Source: a virus. Taken from it: a stretch of 64,000 nt of DNA. The notes beneath the pieces are model-generated. The model saw only the letters and a list, made by a program, of their open reading frames with translations, had not been told where the DNA came from and searched no databases. Positions 8,004 through 63,711 of this stretch are shown here, one piece after another (position 1 is the first letter of the stretch; every line of letters starts with the position of its first letter). The stretch spans positions 19,428 to 83,427 of the IMG/VR virus record IMGVR_UViG_3300043420_001819; one strand, written 5' to 3'. A program made the translations under genes and the position numbers.

Positions 8004-8422
8004 TAAGAAATCCTAATGAGTCCACTTGATGCATTTGCTGCTGGAAACTCTATTACAAAATCTCCACCACTAGCAGTAAGGCTTGAACCAAAATCTAGTA
8101 CAGCTACTGCTTTATTACTTTTAGTAGCATTATAAATTAATGCACCTCTTGCTGTAATTTCACAGTTATTCCAAGTTGGGTCAGAAGTAAAATCTAAGAT
8201 TGATACCCCACCATCAATAGATGTATTAAACCCTGATAATGTTAAACCACCTGCCGTATAACCTGTACCTGTTGCTTCACCGTCAATAGTATATCCAGTT
8301 GTAGTAGCACCAAGTGTAGCTGATTCTACATAAAGAGCTATCATATACGTATCAGTATCCGTATGTACTCCTGAGTATATTTCTTGTAAGTATGAATCAC
8401 AAATTGCTGAAGTAATTGCCAT
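8003..8422 (-). CDS. Probable virion structural protein
   Basis: MAITSAIC..., GTGYTAGG, ITARGALIYN, AVAVLDFG pattern resembles a widespread small phage structural family. Confidence 0.6.
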   Translation of the reverse strand: MAITSAICDSYLQEIYSGVHTDTDTYMIALYVESATLGATTTGYTIDGEATGTGYTAGGLTLSGFNTSIDGGVSILDFTSDPTWNNCEITARGALIYNATKSNKAVAVLDFGSSLTASGGDFVIEFPAANASSGLIRIS

Positions 8423-8434
8423 TTTTAAAATCCT

Positions 8435-8836
8435 TTAATATGCCATTTGAAAGTGTCTTACATTTGGACTATTTTTCCAAAATCCACCCCATAAATTTTT
8501 TAAATCAAGACTTTCCCAATAACCACCTAAAGCAGCTAAAAGTTCGTAGTCATAAGTAATAACATACTCATTATCGTTTTCAATAAAAAAGTTAAAGTCA
8601 ACTGCTAATCTCTTATTATGTTTAGATGCTCTACTAGATTCTTTTTTATTACCTTTTACTATACTTAAATCACCATACTCATTCTCAGTTATTGTTAATC
8701 CTTTATAGTATAATAGCTGTAGTTCATAAGGTCTATATGTTTCTCCAAAACTAAGTTTTATTCCTAACTCTGAAGCTTTAGTTATTAATTTTGCAACATT
8801 CTCTGTGAATGCCCACTGACTTTTCTGTAACATCAT
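8435..8836 (-). CDS. M15 family peptidase (second endolysin-like, possibly altered active site)
   Basis: ETYR, SKH..RLAVD, WGG.W...HF. Confidence 0.8.
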   Translation of the reverse strand: MMLQKSQWAFTENVAKLITKASELGIKLSFGETYRPYELQLLYYKGLTITENEYGDLSIVKGNKKESSRASKHNKRLAVDFNFFIENDNEYVITYDYELLAALGGYWESLDLKNLWGGFWKNSPNVRHFQMAY

Positions 8837-9303
8837 GGCATCATCTCAAAATGTGGTGTGTCAATAAAAGGTCTTTTACCTTCTTTTCTGCGTATATCTA
8901 TATATGCGTTCTGTGCTTCGAGCATTGTACCATCCCATTTAGAGATGTCATTTGTAGTCCAAGCACCACCCCACCTAACAGATACTCCAAGCTCTTTAGC
9001 GGCCTGTTTAAAAGCATCCGCAATGTCATCGTAGAGATTTACTTCCCATGAAACTCTTGAACCTATATATGCTACAACATCAACTGCATGTGAATACCCA
9101 TCACTTTGGATGATGTGTTTTGAATTCATGGTTTGAGAAGCACCCTTTGCTACAAGTTGTTTCTGCTCTTCCATAGTTCTTACACTTGGTAGAACACCAA
9201 AATCTATCTTTGTTATTTCAATCGCACGTTTGACCACTTTTACTAAATCTGGATGAACTCCCTCCAGTCTTTCAAGTGACCTTTTTGATAAGCTAAAACT
9301 CAT
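8833..9303 (-). CDS. Endolysin, L-Ala-D-Glu peptidase (M15, T5-like)
   Basis: LSKRS..L.GVHPDL, SKH...HAVD, WGG.W, DTPHFE. Confidence 0.92.
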   Translation of the reverse strand: MSFSLSKRSLERLEGVHPDLVKVVKRAIEITKIDFGVLPSVRTMEEQKQLVAKGASQTMNSKHIIQSDGYSHAVDVVAYIGSRVSWEVNLYDDIADAFKQAAKELGVSVRWGGAWTTNDISKWDGTMLEAQNAYIDIRRKEGKRPFIDTPHFEMMP

Positions 9304-57714: not shown

Positions 57715-58027
57715 GCATGTACCTGATAGATGGGTTGTACTAAAGATAGTAAATGAGTTTGATACTTTCTATAAAGTATTTGCCACTTGGTTTGGTGGAT
57801 ACCTTGATGGTGATAGCTGGAGAGCTAACTCTGGTATCACTAAAATAGAAGAAGACGGGGATTACTGGTTATTTTATGGTAACTCTGGTAGTGTTTATAG
57901 ATGTCATAAAGAAGGTTTTGGCACAAGCGGGTATACCTATAGAATATTAACTAGTTTTATGAAACAAGCAGCAGACTCTGGCCAAAGTATCGATATAGTT
58001 GAGAATATTAGTGGAACTTTACTGTAA
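57707..58027 (+). CDS. Phage hypothetical protein (start probably 57707)
   Basis: PD.WV, W.GGYL.GDSWR.NSGI, G.SGS.Y.C.K pattern seen in large phages. Confidence 0.65.
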   Translation: MNEHVPDRWVVLKIVNEFDTFYKVFATWFGGYLDGDSWRANSGITKIEEDGDYWLFYGNSGSVYRCHKEGFGTSGYTYRILTSFMKQAADSGQSIDIVENISGTLL

Positions 58028-58053
58028 GGTTATTTTATAATAAAGGAAGTAGA

Positions 58054-58950
58054 ATGAAAGTTGATTATATATCTGACTTACACTTAGATTTTTGGATTAA
58101 GGAGTTAAACCCTACTAACCAAAAACACCATGCCAGAGTAGAAACTTTTGTCAAAGAACTCTACAATCCTTTTCATGAAGTAGGTGATGTATTAATAATT
58201 GCTGGGGATTTAGGACACTATTTTCCTATGGACTCTGAATTTTTACTAGAAATTAAAAAATTGTATAAACATATAATTTTAGTAACTGGAAATCATGATT
58301 TATATTTGATTAGTTCTAAGCAACAAAATAAATATATGTTTAATTCTAACAATAGAATTCTAGAAATGAAAAAGTTTTGTAGAGAAAACGAAGGATTCCA
58401 CTACCTTGATGGCCATATCATTAATATTGATGGGCATAATTTTGCAGGAACTGGTATGTCTTGGGATACTTCTTACTTAAATTTCTTAGAAAAAAATAAT
58501 GAAGTAAAAAGTACTAAAGATTCAGTACTACAAATGTTTAATAATACCATGAATGATTCAAGGTTAATATTTGGTGGGTATGATAATGGGTATGTTAGTA
58601 TTGGGTATAGGAGAGAATATCGTCAATCTTGGTGTCCTTTTAAATATTTTGATGAACAATACGCTAAATTACAGAATTTTGGGGAGTATGACATGATTGA
58701 TGTTATGGTAACTCATTATTCTCCAGTAGTACCCCCGAATATAGACCCTAGATGGGAAAAAGAACAAACTAGTACCTTTTATTACTTTGATGGAATAGAG
58801 GATATTAAAAGAATTAATCCAAAATACTGGATATTTGGGCATACCCATACAGAATATGAGTTTGAAGTACTTAATACTAAGTTTCTTTGTAATCCATTAG
58901 GGTATCCCGGTGAATTTAATAATATTGCCATAAAAAGTTTTATATTATAA
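58054..58950 (+). CDS. Calcineurin-like metallophosphoesterase
   Basis: SDLH, AGD, GNHD, TH, GHTH, NP.GY. Confidence 0.9.
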   Translation: MKVDYISDLHLDFWIKELNPTNQKHHARVETFVKELYNPFHEVGDVLIIAGDLGHYFPMDSEFLLEIKKLYKHIILVTGNHDLYLISSKQQNKYMFNSNNRILEMKKFCRENEGFHYLDGHIINIDGHNFAGTGMSWDTSYLNFLEKNNEVKSTKDSVLQMFNNTMNDSRLIFGGYDNGYVSIGYRREYRQSWCPFKYFDEQYAKLQNFGEYDMIDVMVTHYSPVVPPNIDPRWEKEQTSTFYYFDGIEDIKRINPKYWIFGHTHTEYEFEVLNTKFLCNPLGYPGEFNNIAIKSFIL

Positions 58951-58959
58951 GGTAAGTAG

Positions 58960-59091
58960 ATGTATAAGTACATAATTATATGTTTTTTACTATTAAATGG
59001 ATGTGGTAGACCTATTTTTAGTGTAATAGACCCAGACTGGATAGGTGGTTGTACCTGTTTAGAGCCAGTAAACCACAAAAATAAGGATTGA
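58960..59091 (+). CDS. Unannotated 43-aa lipoprotein
   Basis: MYKYIIICFLLLNG-C lipobox, mature part with CxC. Confidence 0.55.
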   Translation: MYKYIIICFLLLNGCGRPIFSVIDPDWIGGCTCLEPVNHKNKD

Positions 59092-59226
59092 AATGGATTA
59101 TTTTGATAAAATATTAGGTATTGTGTTCCTAATTGTAACATCATTTACACTTTTATCTGTTTTTATACACTACTACTATATATAATATGTTATAATAAGA
59201 TTATCTATAACAAAAAAGGAATAAAA

Positions 59227-59400
59227 ATGAAAATAACTTTTGATGAAAAAGACCTATTTAGAGAGTTTGAGTTTTACAAGGACCAAGTTGCCCCATTAGA
59301 AACAGAAATTGTTAAAATTAATTTTTTAAATGAGGGAAAAATCGTTAAAGTTACTGAATTAGAAGTAATTTTTGGAAAGAAAAAGAAAGAAAAGCAGTAA
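59227..59400 (+). CDS. Small hypothetical protein (57 aa)
   Basis: SD AAAGGA, ATG 59227. Confidence 0.55.
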   Translation: MKITFDEKDLFREFEFYKDQVAPLETEIVKINFLNEGKIVKVTELEVIFGKKKKEKQ

Positions 59401-59573
59401 TGAGTGAAATTATTACTGCAAGTTGTGTTGATATTCCTGTAAATGAGGAATTTATTAGTAAATTACTGGAGTTTTATAGGGGAGAAGAGTCATCTTTTAC
59501 TTATTTAACTAATTCAAGATGTGATTCTATTTATATCGTTGTAAATTTCATATTGGAGGGTAAAAATGACTAA
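59400..59573 (+). CDS. Small hypothetical protein (57 aa)
   Basis: TAATG overlap with previous ORF. Confidence 0.5.
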   Translation: MSEIITASCVDIPVNEEFISKLLEFYRGEESSFTYLTNSRCDSIYIVVNFILEGKND

Positions 59574-59763
59574 ATTTTATGTTATTTTTGGTATAATTAT
59601 ACCAAGTTTATGCTTTTCATTAGAAGAGTCAAAGACCTGTGGTGCTAACTATGCTTACGATTTTGATACACATAAGTGTGAAAAGATAAAGTATAGTGTA
59701 GATTATAGTTTGAGTTGGGTATGGGAAGACTTAAATGCCTCAAAATCAACACAAAAAATCTAA
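59566..59763 (+). CDS. Small exported protein
   Basis: SD GGAGG, signal-like N-terminus, two further Cys. Confidence 0.5.
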   Translation: MTKFYVIFGIIIPSLCFSLEESKTCGANYAYDFDTHKCEKIKYSVDYSLSWVWEDLNASKSTQKI

Positions 59764-59834
59764 GCATTACGATAATATAATACATAGTTATTATACTTAT
59801 AACTAAATATTATATAACAAAAGGAAAAAACAAC

Positions 59835-60143
59835 ATGAAATTTATAATTAACAAAATTATAGTAGTATCAATGGTATTAATTGCATTTATATCAAATATG
59901 TTTGCAGATTTTAATTCAACTGAAGCAGAAACACATTTTACGCAAATGGCACATGCAATTTCACAAGCTGACCATGATATGGCAGAAAGAATGTGTGGTG
60001 TATGTTTTACTAAAATTGAAAAATATAAAATAGAGATAAATGCTGAGCCTATTCCAAATGAAATGGAGATTAAAACTCTTGAGACATATGAGGGTAGACT
60101 CCAAAAGTTTTGTAATATGAAAAATCAACCAGTAGAAAAATAA
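59835..60143 (+). CDS. Secreted/periplasmic protein with CxxC
   Basis: Signal peptide ending MFA; CGVC; preceded by ACGATAAT at 59769. Confidence 0.6.
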   Translation: MKFIINKIIVVSMVLIAFISNMFADFNSTEAETHFTQMAHAISQADHDMAERMCGVCFTKIEKYKIEINAEPIPNEMEIKTLETYEGRLQKFCNMKNQPVEK

Positions 60144-60153
60144 GGAAAATACT

Positions 60154-60258
60154 ATGGCTAGAAACCCTAGAAAACATAAAAGAGTAAAATCTGAACCTTT
60201 CCAAGGTAAGAAAAGACTTAAAAGGTTAAATGCTACTAACTTGTTAATTAATAATTAA
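60154..60258 (+). CDS. Unannotated 34-aa basic peptide
   Basis: SD AAGGA; MARNPRKHKRVKSEPFQGKKRLKRL... Confidence 0.45.
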   Translation: MARNPRKHKRVKSEPFQGKKRLKRLNATNLLINN

Positions 60259-60280
60259 TTTACTTGACATTTATTATTAA

Positions 60281-60310
60281 TTAAGCATATATTGTTAACT
60301 ATGGTATAAT
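60281..60310 (+). promoter_or_regulatory. Promoter of the RNA cluster
   Basis: TTAAGC...TGGTATAAT extended -10; TTGACA also at 60264. Confidence 0.7.
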
Positions 60311-60420
60311 ATATCTACAAAAGCATCGGGGATTCTCGATGGACGGGGTGGCCACTCGTTTCTGTATCTGTATTAGGCAGTGTAAATCTGAACAAAATGA
60401 TATTATATTCCACCATTTGT

Positions 60421-60496
60421 CGCACCGTAGGGAAGAGGTCATCCCGTGAGGCTCATAACCTCAAGATCGTAGGTTCGAATCCTACCGGAGCAACCA
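60421..60496 (+). tRNA. tRNA-Met(CAT), initiator-like
   Basis: Cloverleaf, anticodon loop CTCATAA, GTTCGAATC T-loop, encoded CCA, C1:A72 mismatch. Confidence 0.92.
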
Positions 60497-60504
60497 AAAT
60501 AAGA

Positions 60505-61245
60505 TTGATACATACCATTCCAGGGCTTAGTTGGTGCCCGTACTTCAATAGAGGTAAAAATGGACTAACTAGGGAATGGTATCTACCAGTCTTCATATAA
60601 GACTGACCGCTCTCAACTGAATAACTAACTAATGAAGGTTGAGCCTTGTTGGATGGGTAGTTACATCGTGAACAAGCGTGTAGGTGGAAATCCTATCAGA
60701 TACGGTACGAAGAAAGAGATTGAGTTCTCTATACAAGCTGTATCAAATCGGTTGAAATATTACCGTTACCCAAAGTTTATCTTTGGTGTCTCCGCCGAAA
60801 GGTGAGAGGATTGGATTTTTAGTGAGTTCTTCCGTACATTGAATGAAGTCTCTAGTTAGTTATAGTATTTGCCAATACATCGTCATATAACTTTAACGAA
60901 CACTATGCAACGGTTAGTAGATGCGAGACTTCATTTAGTGTATATAATGAAGGGATTGAATAATTTTATACAAAGTATAAAATTGAAATAAATAGTATAT
61001 CGCTCGTACGGCCTCTCAACGATGCACACTGCTTCGGGCTTGTTAGGTTCTGAACAAAAACATTTGGTAGGTTATACCAGTGAACAAAAACAGAAACCTT
61101 GCGAGTAACATTCGTTAATGATAATGTAAAGTTCCTAGCCTCGAAGGTGCACCTCGACTAGGTCATTAACCGTTGGGTTAAATCGTACTACGGTATATAA
61201 AAGAACACGATGGCGTTCACTGAGTATTCGGGGGACGAGTCTCTG
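60505..61245 (+). ncRNA. Large structured non-coding RNA (one or two RNAs)
   Basis: No credible ORF; many stems incl. 18-bp 60835-60852/60925-60942 with G-U pairs on plus strand, GAAA tetraloop, T-loop-like hairpin, pseudoknot. Confidence 0.7.
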
Positions 61246-61262
61246 TATAATAAAGGATTTTT

Positions 61263-61679
61263 GTGGACGCACAACAACTTATAGATATTCACAAACAACC
61301 AAGTATCAATGAAGAGTACGTTGAAACTTGTGTAGATAATTGGGATAATATTAAAGTTGAACATAGACTTATAAATTCTAGCTTTTTATACAGTATTATA
61401 CCTGCTATTGAAAAGTATGATATGGTACAAAGAGTATGGATTGCTATGAATGGATTAGTTAGAATTAATCTAAAAGGTTTTGATGGCTATGATAGAGTAT
61501 CAGATATATCATTACATCCTAACAAAGGTTATTTCTCAATCATAAGAAGTCTTGATGAAGAAGTCAGAATATGTGAAAACGCTATTATAAGCATTATACT
61601 AGATGAGATTACACGAATTCAAAGCTATTTTCCTAGAAAGAAGTTATTTGAAGATTTTTATGATGAAGAGGAAGAGTAA
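61263..61679 (+). CDS. Hypothetical protein embedded in RNA cluster
   Basis: SD AAAGGA, GTG start, 138 aa. Confidence 0.6.
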   Translation: MDAQQLIDIHKQPSINEEYVETCVDNWDNIKVEHRLINSSFLYSIIPAIEKYDMVQRVWIAMNGLVRINLKGFDGYDRVSDISLHPNKGYFSIIRSLDEEVRICENAIISIILDEITRIQSYFPRKKLFEDFYDEEEE

Positions 61680-61689
61680 ATCTTATAAA

Positions 61690-62010
61690 TAAATCCAATA
61701 CTGTGAAGCGGGGTTACGATGCTTAGCGTTTAGTAAGCCCTCGATGGTTGAATACCGTTATCGTCTCGCTTCCACTTTATTAATACATCTCATTACAGTT
61801 CCATTCAGCATCCGAACTTTGACAAGGATGTTGATAGAGTTGTAATGTTCCGAAAAGTCAAAGATGGACAGCCTGTTGATGTTAAATCCAATTCCGTGAA
61901 GCAGGTGGTGTTCTCATTGCAAAACTCGAAGGATGACACATAATAAATTAAGGAATTGGTACTTTATCACGTAAGACTATACCATCGAAAGATAGGCTAT
62001 AGCTGTGATT
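61690..62010 (+). ncRNA. Cluster of small structured RNA elements
   Basis: Closed stems 61703-61775, 61791-61863 (pseudoknot), CCAATTCC/GGAATTGG; duplicated leader motif. Confidence 0.55.
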
Positions 62011-62027
62011 GGTTTTTATCATTGATG

Positions 62028-62112
62028 TTGATTGTAGAATGAACTAGTAGCTACTAGTCTGGACAATTCGCCTATTAAGGAGAATCAGGTTCGAATCCTG
62101 ACAGTCATCACA
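62028..62112 (+). ncRNA. Aberrant tRNA-like element
   Basis: Perfect T-arm TCAGG-TTCGAAT-CCTGA, acceptor-like and D stems, truncated anticodon arm, no CCA. Confidence 0.6.
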
Positions 62113-62146
62113 AAACACAACTTAAATAAATTCTAAAAGGAATTAA

Positions 62147-62662
62147 ATGAAAAAGTTTTTAACACTTTGTTTGGCACTTGCTACTTCAACCTTGTTTGCA
62201 GGGGGATACACAGAACAAGAACCAGAAATCACTGGTAAAACTGGATTCTACATTGGTGGTTTTGGTCAACAAAATCTATATGGTGGAACTGCTGACAACT
62301 CTCAAGGGCTTGGACTAGTAGTAGGGTATGAGTATGGGCTTTTAGGACCAATTAATGTTGGTGCAGAGGGACGTGTAAGTAAAACTAACACGTACAATGA
62401 TAACATTGTTAGTTACACAGGATTAGTAAAAGCAGGACTTGAGATTGGAAACATTGAACCTTATGCATTAGGGGGATACCAGCTTTCTGATACTTCGTTT
62501 GGCTCTGATAATAATGCTTTTGTATACGGTGGTGGTATTTCTGCTGATGTAAACTGTAGAACAAAAGTATTTGCTGATTACCTAGTGAACGCTGATTTGA
62601 AAGAAGGTGGAGATAAAATCTCTCATGATACTGTAACAATCGGTATTAAATACCTCTTCTAA
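62147..62662 (+). CDS. Outer membrane beta-barrel protein (8-strand OmpA/Ail-like)
   Basis: Signal peptide MKK...LFA, amphipathic strands, PYALGG, C-terminal IGIKYLF beta-signal. Confidence 0.85.
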   Translation: MKKFLTLCLALATSTLFAGGYTEQEPEITGKTGFYIGGFGQQNLYGGTADNSQGLGLVVGYEYGLLGPINVGAEGRVSKTNTYNDNIVSYTGLVKAGLEIGNIEPYALGGYQLSDTSFGSDNNAFVYGGGISADVNCRTKVFADYLVNADLKEGGDKISHDTVTIGIKYLF

Positions 62663-62668
62663 AACTAG

Positions 62669-62690
62669 CAAGGTTCTTTTGAGAACCTTG
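62669..62690 (+). terminator. Hairpin terminator after OMP gene
   Basis: CAAGGTTCT-TTTG-AGAACCTTG. Confidence 0.65.
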
Positions 62691-62758
62691 TGCCTCCTTT
62701 TAAGTTTCCTCTAAGCTACTTTCCTTTATAATCTACTTTCAAAAAACAAGGAAAGCAC

Positions 62759-63297: not shown

Positions 63298-63449
63298 CTA
63301 AGTTCTTGTCGGGACTCCTTCACTTTCTTTTCTAAATTTATTTTCGTTTTTAGTTCTTGTAAGTTTTTGTAAGCACCTGGTAAGTTTTTGTTAATGCCTG
63401 TAAGCACCTGTAAGCACCTGTAAGCACCTGCTAAGTTCTTGTCGGGACT
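63298..63449. repeat. Decamer tandem array with 19-bp direct repeats at its ends
   Basis: TAAGCACCTG x4 plus TAAGTTYTTG-type variants at ~10-bp period; CTAAGTTCTTGTCGGGACT at 63298 and 63431. Confidence 0.9.
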
Positions 63450-63711
63450 GATATACCCTTTGAGTTCGTAAAATACACACTACGACTTCCGGAAAACTTA
63501 AAGGAAACTTAAACCTCCCCTCTTGGTGTTACTTTTTGGTACAGGTGAGTAAGTGTGTTACCTTTTGATACAATTTTATTTTTTTAATTACATAGAAGTA
63601 ATCTTTAAGTTTCTTTTAAGTTTTATTATGGTTATGCGTGTGCGTGTTCCTATAATCGCATGACAGAAAAAAAAGTTACATGTGTAACTTGTTAAAAATT
63701 AAAAAAGAAAC

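Follow-up and report, generated by a model that had tools for sequence, protein, structure and literature searches.

Directly downstream of a tRNA-Met gene in an IMG/VR virus record, we identified a locus that is real, expressed, structured and non-coding; its sequence family is absent from Rfam 15 and its setting is of a known kind. On balance we consider it probable that the locus is a co-transcribed chain of separable structured RNA units, which form a new family and are carried on a tRNA-linked transcript. On the best reading, the units are a spacer, M1 (60501-60605), a segment with modules A and B (60609-60819) and a segment with modules C, D and E (60820-61198). Judging from sequence comparison, module A (about 135 nt) is an autonomous, horizontally moving RNA element with a fold kept by compensatory changes.

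The window, meaning the whole 64,000-nt stretch of DNA that was analysed and whose numbering is used here, comprises bases 19428-83427 of an 83,427-base record with a CheckV completeness of 44 %. Public runs containing this DNA are freshwater metagenomes. All 570 of the 570 GenBank phage records matching the large terminase (TerL) showed less than 60 % identity and are remote relatives only. The best among the matches listed had 24-25 % identity and included Pectobacterium phage My1 and Salmonella phage faergetype, which we take to be T5-like. The host genome appears to be that of an uncultured A+T-rich freshwater phage with a distantly T5-like terminase, this TerL link being remote.

The genes 5′ of the locus include an ATP-dependent ligase and a metallophosphoesterase. 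On the 3′ side are a 138-aa ORF (ORF138, 61263-61679, plus strand) and an outer-membrane beta-barrel protein, with a second non-coding cluster located between the two. ORF138 is a neighbouring gene outside the RNA and has homologues at 99, 75 and 67 % identity. It had no Pfam or PHROG match, and queries of viral contigs with its single sequence or an alignment, as well as a query of metagenome contigs, recovered no useful relatives. It starts with GTG at 61263, and AAAGGA is found 6 nt before this codon, within a stretch (61199-61262, plus strand) that we annotated as the trailer of the RNA and the ribosome-binding region of ORF138. Among the Pfam/PHROG-annotated neighbours in the window, there was no nuclease gene adjoining the RNA.

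The tRNA-Met (60421-60496, plus strand, anticodon CAT, ending in CCA) was recognised by ARAGORN and by the Rfam model RF00005 with 61.8 bits. Its acceptor stem has two mismatches, 1:72 and 4:69, both flagged as non-standard pairs by the Rfam model. The mismatch C1xA72 is a mark of initiator tRNA, and by its sequence the tRNA-Met looks initiator-like. The folded region had been described as lying directly behind the tRNA, and it indeed starts 1 nt after the tRNA end (60496).

A sigma-70-like promoter candidate for the whole RNA operon is located at 60264-60293 on the plus strand (TTGACA, 18-nt spacer, TATATT; 11/12 matches), which should be read as a consensus match only, because the region contains 19 such sites against 16.7 in shuffles. 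We found no terminator-like site on the plus strand before 62668, the first one being at 62668-62691. Given these two sites, the tRNA, the folded stretch, ORF138, the second non-coding cluster and the barrel gene could be one transcription unit.

The initial annotation described the region as lacking a credible ORF, as richer in G+C and as densely paired in favour of the plus strand, and all three descriptions held. The longest ORF over 60497-61262 on either strand has 57 aa (60632-60805); it does not match Pfam, and the protein collection contains no homologue of it. In 300-nt windows, the G+C content was 0.35-0.42 over 60350-61249, compared to 0.24-0.32 over 59000-60349 and 0.29 over 61250-61699. 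The plus strand of 60497-61262 folded at -219.5 kcal/mol (z -7.51) and none of 20 shuffles was as good, whereas the minus strand reached -181.5 kcal/mol (z -3.67). Four coding controls of 766 nt, folded in sense, had z-scores of -0.34, -1.54, +0.31 and -1.44. The region also contains six exact complementary runs of at least 9 nt against 1.05 expected, a count reached by none of 300 shuffles. At the scale of 160-nt sliding windows the best z of the region was -4.3, but coding windows at 59300-59819 reached -3.8. The region is therefore not set apart from some coding windows at this scale, and the signal comes from the long stems and from the region taken as a whole; not every local window carries it. 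Folded alone, module E had -59.8 kcal/mol (z -3.32, with 2 of 200 shuffles as good) and A-B had a z of -2.6. The tRNA-side gaps of sister phages fold moderately (z -2.59, -1.20 and -2.28), and one of them probably holds a small ORF.

The predicted fold can be divided into modules, all on the plus strand. The spacer M1 between the tRNA and module A is a long hairpin with an outer stem 60501-21/60573-93 and an apical hairpin 60541-46/60551-56. It contains the inverted repeat I1 (21 nt, 86 % complementary), with pair probabilities of 0.83 and 0.98. The 10-bp stem 60512-21/60573-82 noticed earlier is a perfect complement, and the hairpin 60587-60605 was recovered with 7 bp as an alternative small hairpin of M1. 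The proposed pseudoknot between 60527-34 and 60565-72 stood only in part: the pairing is possible (8 pairs, 2 of them G-U), but a pseudoknot is not required, because the minimum-energy fold uses the two segments as a nested helix.

Module A (60609-60745) was delimited by its homologue in the contig L034 and by the contigs of relatives. It consists of four hairpins: P1 (60612-18/60637-43), P2 (60645-50/60671-76 plus 60652-56/60661-67), P3 with a 7-nt T-loop-like loop (60680-84/60692-96) and P4 (60699-706/60737-44), which carries P4b (60715-19/60726-30). The T-loop-like hairpin TAGG-TGGAAAT-CCTA was found as described and is also kept in another phage, L034. Module B (60746-60819) has three small hairpins, 60749-52/60762-65, 60770-75/60781-86 and 60789-96/60801-07, with pair probabilities of 0.91, 0.98 and 0.53; the last one bears the expected GAAA loop at 60797-60800. 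Module C (60834-60943) is a 19-bp stem with two G-U pairs that encloses 72 nt and corresponds to the inverted repeat I2 (pair probability 0.99). The previously noted 18-bp stem 60835-52/60925-42 is present, and its two G-U pairs would be A-C mismatches on the other strand. Module D (60961-60985) is an A+U hairpin of 10-11 bp (inverted repeat I11, pair probability 0.95), which includes the 10-bp hairpin 60962-71/60975-84 of the initial annotation and overlaps a weak promoter-like match at 60956-60983 (9/12 matches). Module E (60995-61198) is a multibranch domain, as previously suggested, with helix probabilities of 0.62-0.98. It is closed by its own 5′ and 3′ ends through the helices 60995-61002/61191-98 (pair probability 0.98) and 61006-11/61183-88 (0.94).

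We searched the locus for known RNA families. Rfam 15 returned only the tRNA in the whole window at gathering thresholds, and in 60200-62400 at E<=10 it returned the tRNA and four chance-level matches. The cmscan check thus revealed no known family besides tRNA, and the GOLLD and ROOL models gave no match. When the whole 83-kb record was searched with the conserved 3′ domain of the GOLLD model RF02032, 13 candidates were scored and none had E<=10; the same model had no match in 12 other virus records. For the ROOL model RF03087 (574 positions), three candidates were scored in the whole record and none had E<=10, but this search alone is weak because control genomes also gave no match.

Group I and group II intron families had no match at E<=10 in 60200-62400, and no split ORF flanks the region. 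We considered a group I intron with an endonuclease ORF and rejected it: the intron models did not match, and module A is not followed by an exon. Downstream of the module in L034, there is no ORF of at least 60 aa before the endolysin gene. Searches for a tRNA cloverleaf (RF00005, clan CL00001, and ARAGORN) recovered 60421-60496 and nothing else at E<=10 in 60200-62400. In module A one hairpin is T-arm-like, but no acceptor stem encloses the four. A circularly permuted or degenerate tRNA made of A and B, a reading made by eye only, was dismissed as L034 has no module B. A T-box-like double T-loop was discarded since the AGAGA tract is paired in P4b. An OMEGA guide RNA (HEARO/omega RNA) was discarded as well: there is no adjacent IscB or TnpB, and the overlapping ORF in L034 is a homing endonuclease. 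Four GenBank phage records matched in a 'distant' blastn search, all four in the tRNA part only. The literature we searched, not counting the supplementary motif lists of PMC10690425, contained no account of this RNA.

Regarding transcription, RNA from the locus is present in a freshwater metatranscriptome (run X3) that comes from another study than the likely source sample. One contig of 582 nt with a depth of 58.3 covers 60618-61142 and continues with 55 letters of variant sequence to about 61198. The X3 contigs over 59344-60348 have depths of 4.2-6.9, which makes the RNA contig about tenfold deeper than these adjacent mRNA contigs. Since each contig has a single depth value, which cannot rank genes, we take X3 as evidence of RNA presence and as a hint of abundance. 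The contigs show neither ends nor strand. The X3 depth was 36-58 over the RNA and 0 over 58000-59205 and 61216-61617, and stretches without X3 cover carry no weight alone. Two further runs, X4 (share 0.27) and X5 (share 0.09), contain little of the stretch and were used for differences only, not for habitat.

With a pattern from the stretch kept by the contigs of relatives, we found one homologue of module A in an IMG/VR contig, L034, which is the only relative that the RNA's own motifs recovered from viral contigs. Its positions 8412-8552 (minus strand) align with 60605-60750 of the window. All 36 predicted pairs of module A form in both sequences (72/72 cells), and five of these pairs, located in P1 and P2, are compensatory with both sides changed. 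When the partners were slid by 1-3 columns, 34-48 % of cells were paired and 0-2 double changes were seen, and in a shuffle control 18 of 500 reached the observed values. Several of the pairs are G-U, which fits the plus strand only. The second half of the module (60676-60744) is identical in 68 of 69 positions, and there is no likeness between the window and L034 beyond 60745. Otherwise the two phages, distant relatives at most, share only an endolysin with 33-45 % amino-acid identity. The start of module A in L034 overlaps the final codons of a homing-endonuclease gene (phrog_314, 2e-16, with a weak NUMOD-like Pfam match).

Contigs of relatives from the runs X5, X1 and X3 showed further changes. 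The G-C pair 60684:60692 of P3 is replaced by A-U with the loop one base shorter, the G-C pair 60716:60729 of P4b is replaced by A-U with both changes in one contig, and the G-U pair 60704:60739 by A-U. A 16-nt deletion takes out P4b. The X3 variant of module E lacks 22 nt at 61062, which corresponds to the predicted hairpin 61061-82, and has two compensatory pairs in the hairpin 61141-57 together with one broken pair, 61138:61158; the apical UGCA of this hairpin is kept while the stem covaries. In total, the relatives contributed four further compensatory pairs (two in A and two in E) and two hairpin-sized deletions. The search for homologues and covariation thus yielded compensatory pairs in module A (five, plus two from relatives) and in one hairpin of E (two), all based on one full homologue, L034, and fragments.

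For modules C and D and the larger part of E, there is not a single independent homologue, and 60820-61198 was seen only in near-identical strains. The RNA motifs had no match when used as queries against metagenome contigs and genome contigs. Apart from the two seeds of A, models of A and E had no match in 12 further virus records, namely 8 terminase relatives, 3 phosphoesterase relatives and L034's own record, the last for model E. In the eight terminase relatives, BLAST matches had at most 28 nt and a best E of 0.006. The phosphoesterase relatives L002-L004 have neither the tRNA nor the RNA. A sister phage (G005) shows the order phosphoesterase, tRNA, 140-aa ORF and non-coding stretch without the RNA, and its 140-aa ORF has no detectable likeness to ORF138.

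These comparisons bear on the possibility that the locus is functionless structured debris, that is, decayed tRNA genes and remains of homing endonucleases or introns in a recombination-prone tRNA island, transcribed behind the tRNA promoter. Some observations would suit such an origin: one hairpin is T-arm-like, a homing-endonuclease gene adjoins module A in L034, and 68/69 identical positions between distantly related phages are more like recent gene conversion than long-term constraint. The family is also rare: its own motifs recovered L034 as a single relative from the viral collection and none from the metagenome and genome collections. However, the diverged half of module A keeps all its pairs by means of five compensatory changes, which decay would not achieve. 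Moreover, the Rfam tRNA model finds only the true tRNA at E<=10, there is neither an intron-model match nor a split host gene, and the depth of the RNA contig, read as the hint that it is, lies well above that of neighbouring mRNA contigs. We consider debris an improbable explanation.

The initial annotation regarded the locus as a single RNA of ~740 nt, and one conserved molecule of this size we could not uphold, as its parts recombine separately and the RNA contig has ~580 nt (60618 to about 61198). Behind the tRNA, 60501-60605 forms a hairpin spacer of its own, and at 60609 there is a sharp module boundary, with three joints or contig starts at 60609-60610. The parts found in other phages are only 60609-60745 or 60609-60819, and they occur in other contexts. 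An X5 contig carries A and B (60610-60819) with 14 differences, one X5 contig connects the end of module A to a module at 61803, and an X1 contig joins 60819 to 61794. In relatives, the joint 61663>60609 places the 3′ end of an ORF138-like gene before module A, and the joint 61226>60609 consists of an E-like trailer, then 32 letters, then 60609. Each joint alone is weak, because the joints were read at 80 % likeness and are often spurious, coming from other organisms or repeats, and one of them is a single contig with a depth of 4.5. The contigs also delimit a leader upstream of the tRNA, M0 (60295-60397, plus strand), as a module of its own: an X5 contig spans it with 12 differences, and the X3 and X1 contigs diverge at 60397. 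The X3 depth over M0 was 14-29.

The order of modules in relatives is also relevant to a very long cis-acting 5′ leader that would regulate ORF138 (61263-61679) at the level of translation or stability. In favour of such a leader, 64 nt separate the end of the RNA from the start codon, and no terminator lies between the RNA and ORF138. Nevertheless, the joint 61663>60609 puts an ORF138-like gene upstream of module A, L034 has module A without an ORF138-like gene, and the X3 depth of 36-58 over the RNA is set against 0 over 61216-61617, a gap that carries no weight alone. We regard a role as ORF138 leader as highly improbable.

Two observations speak against separable units. One X3 contig spans A to E, which means that the units are joined at the transcript level. 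In addition, the P1 loop 60621-31 is an exact 11-nt complement of 60853-63 in module C, and 60908-16 (module C) and 61167-75 (module E) form an exact 9-nt complement, and these would fit one compact fold. The locus may accordingly be read as a single large ornate RNA of ~590 nt that starts at 60609 or 60618, ends at 61198 and represents a new class comparable to ROOL and GOLLD, with an exchangeable 5′ part A-B and the 3′ multibranch domain E, in which loop-loop pairings hold a compact fold or multimers. The right end of the contig that starts at 60618 falls at ~61198, within ~2 nt of the end of the closing helix of E, and with a z of -7.5 the whole region has a stronger signal than E (-3.3) or A-B (-2.6) folded alone. 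The excess of long-range exact complements and the kept UGCA apex of the hairpin 61141-57 point in the same direction. The size and the tRNA-Met setting resemble those of ROOL and GOLLD env-38, and the 5′ region of GOLLD is variable too (10.1101/2024.12.08.627333).

On the other hand, module A follows an E-like end or an ORF138-like gene in relatives, A-B is joined to the 61794 module without C-E, and in L034 module A stands alone. The 9-nt complement between C and E would form at the expense of helices within E, the 11-nt complement consists of motifs rich in TAA and TAG stop codons and could recur for that reason alone, and the long-range contacts show no covariation. A single RNA is thus possible, but we are doubtful about it. 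A bolder version appears rather unlikely: a third kind of large ornate tRNA-linked phage RNA, ~590 nt, in freshwater T5-like phages, whose exchangeable 5′ module is spread by homing endonucleases and docks on the 3′ body through an 11-bp loop-loop helix, the whole acting as one particle, perhaps self-assembling like ROOL and GOLLD.

Returning to the chain of separable units, transcription from 60264-60293 would probably proceed through the leader, the initiator-like tRNA-Met and ~770 nt of folded RNA into ORF138. We infer that the units may be freed from the tRNA precursor by host tRNA-end enzymes, and double-strand-specific cleavage in the long M1 and C stems may release them as well, with M1 as a putative cleavage site. 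The units would then persist as stable RNAs and act in trans during infection. As to their role, our first guess is that they are decoys or binders of host factors recognising the tRNA shape, e.g. tRNA-directed defence nucleases. This guess derives from the setting, i.e. the tRNA island, the T-loop hairpin in module A and the homing endonuclease. An assembly similar to ROOL or GOLLD, suggested by analogy, is our second guess.

Several known systems can be compared to this locus. In phage T4, the tRNA cluster gives rise to stable non-tRNA RNAs of unknown function that are co-transcribed with tRNAs. Both loci have small structured non-tRNA RNAs beside phage tRNAs, but we expect no sequence relation between them, and the units described here add up to ~700 nt and include one that moves from phage to phage across a distant relationship. 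A GIY-YIG-type homing endonuclease, SegB, sits in the T4 tRNA cluster (PMC2330249; PMC13096335). Endonucleases of the SegB type co-localise with phage tRNA genes, and the latter source ties them and phage tRNA islands to the escape from tRNA-cutting defences (PMC13096335).

ROOL (RF03087) is phage-encoded, found near tRNA genes, abundant, ~580 nt long and rich in stems, with no known protein partner (10.1101/2024.12.08.627333). In these traits it is similar to our locus, which differs in that it has no covariance-model match at E<=10 and that its parts recombine independently. GOLLD (RF02032) occurs downstream of tRNA-Met in an aquatic phage (GOLLD env-38), has a variable 5′ part and includes the tRNA in the same transcript (10.1101/2024.12.08.627333). 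The locus described here differs in that its record does not match the model of GOLLD's conserved 3′ domain and in that it is shorter than 800 nt. The phage location near tRNA genes that characterises GOLLD is also found here, in an IMG/VR virus record. ROOL and GOLLD are presented there as RNA-only multimeric cages (10.1101/2024.12.08.627333), an assembly that is hypothetical for our locus. From the IMG/VR intergenic regions, 8,495 candidate structured RNAs of 29-151 nt have been mined (PMC10690425). That set has the same source as module A and a similar size range, but its pipeline needs at least three distinct regions, and module A was found in two in IMG/VR.

Phage tRNA islands are emerging as counter-defence loci, and their large RNAs (GOLLD, ROOL) have no known function. 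To this setting the locus contributes a sequence family unrelated to these two, for whose transcription environmental RNA gives evidence. It is also a tangible example of an RNA module that passes from one phage to a distant relative in the vicinity of a homing endonuclease. Should tRNA islands in general prove to be strings of exchangeable RNA cassettes, research would have to focus on modules of 100-200 nt and not on a 'giant RNA'. The small size of module A would permit direct structure probing and pull-downs.

We also noticed a neighbouring RNA at 61817-61931. An 18-mer from it matched two viral contigs, and we consider these matches to be due to chance, as both lie in coding DNA of an unrelated phage with only 19 nt in common. 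A 134-nt X3 contig at this position has a depth of 348.7, a figure for that contig that cannot rank genes. Illumina adapter sequence, on which we do not rely since contigs show neither ends nor strand, adjoins the X3 contigs at both 60618 and 61817, which could reflect discrete 5′ ends and plus-sense RNA.

The stretch at 61817-61931 is probably a small RNA of very high abundance. It has the deepest metatranscriptome cover, with contig depths of 348.7 and 77, and its first position, 61817, is abutted by a sequencing adapter in three contigs. Several variant forms of this stretch were recovered from the public runs X1 and X5, and in one relative it is located immediately after module A, the four-hairpin RNA unit found at 60609-60745 (+) in the window. 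The region 62028-62112 gave no match to the Rfam tRNA model at E ≤ 10. Close to the contig end, the non-coding stretch 63397-63633 shares 62% identity across 255 nt with positions 4404-4656 of L032, a stretch behind the tRNA locus of the sister phage G005. Given this likeness, the block running from the tRNA to 63397 is much longer in the window phage.

The leader upstream of the tRNA (60295-60397) is a separate module. It is present with about 88% identity in a contig from X5. Beyond 60397, contigs from X1 and from the metatranscriptome X3 carry different sequence after the leader, which suggests that the downstream tRNA may be exchangeable. The tRNA-Met in the window (60421-60496) ends with CCA at its 3′ end and has two acceptor mismatches, C against A at 1:72 and A against A at 4:69; the mismatch at 1:72 is the mark of bacterial initiator tRNAs.

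Two sister phages, G007 and G002, have in common a hairpin upstream of the tRNA, which adjoins it in G002 and lies about 80 nt off in G007. The 13-nt loop motif of this hairpin (L030 2953-2965 (+) in G007 and L031 4960-4972 (-) in G002) is identical in both, and the stems differ with the pairing kept. This loop motif was not found in the window.

Motifs of TAA or TAG with 4-nt spacing, which place stop codons in two or three reading frames, occur repeatedly: at 60564-60572 in the stem of M1, the hairpin spacer after the tRNA; at 60619-60636 in the loop of P1, the first hairpin of module A; and at 60852-60865 in the long-stem module C. Two of the long-range complements are explained by these motifs. 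The P1 loop holds a stop codon in L034, a contig of a distantly related phage with a module A homologue at 8412-8552 (-). There it terminates a partial homing-endonuclease ORF located beside module A (8530-9015 (-); phrog_314, 2e-16), and the contig end falls within this ORF.
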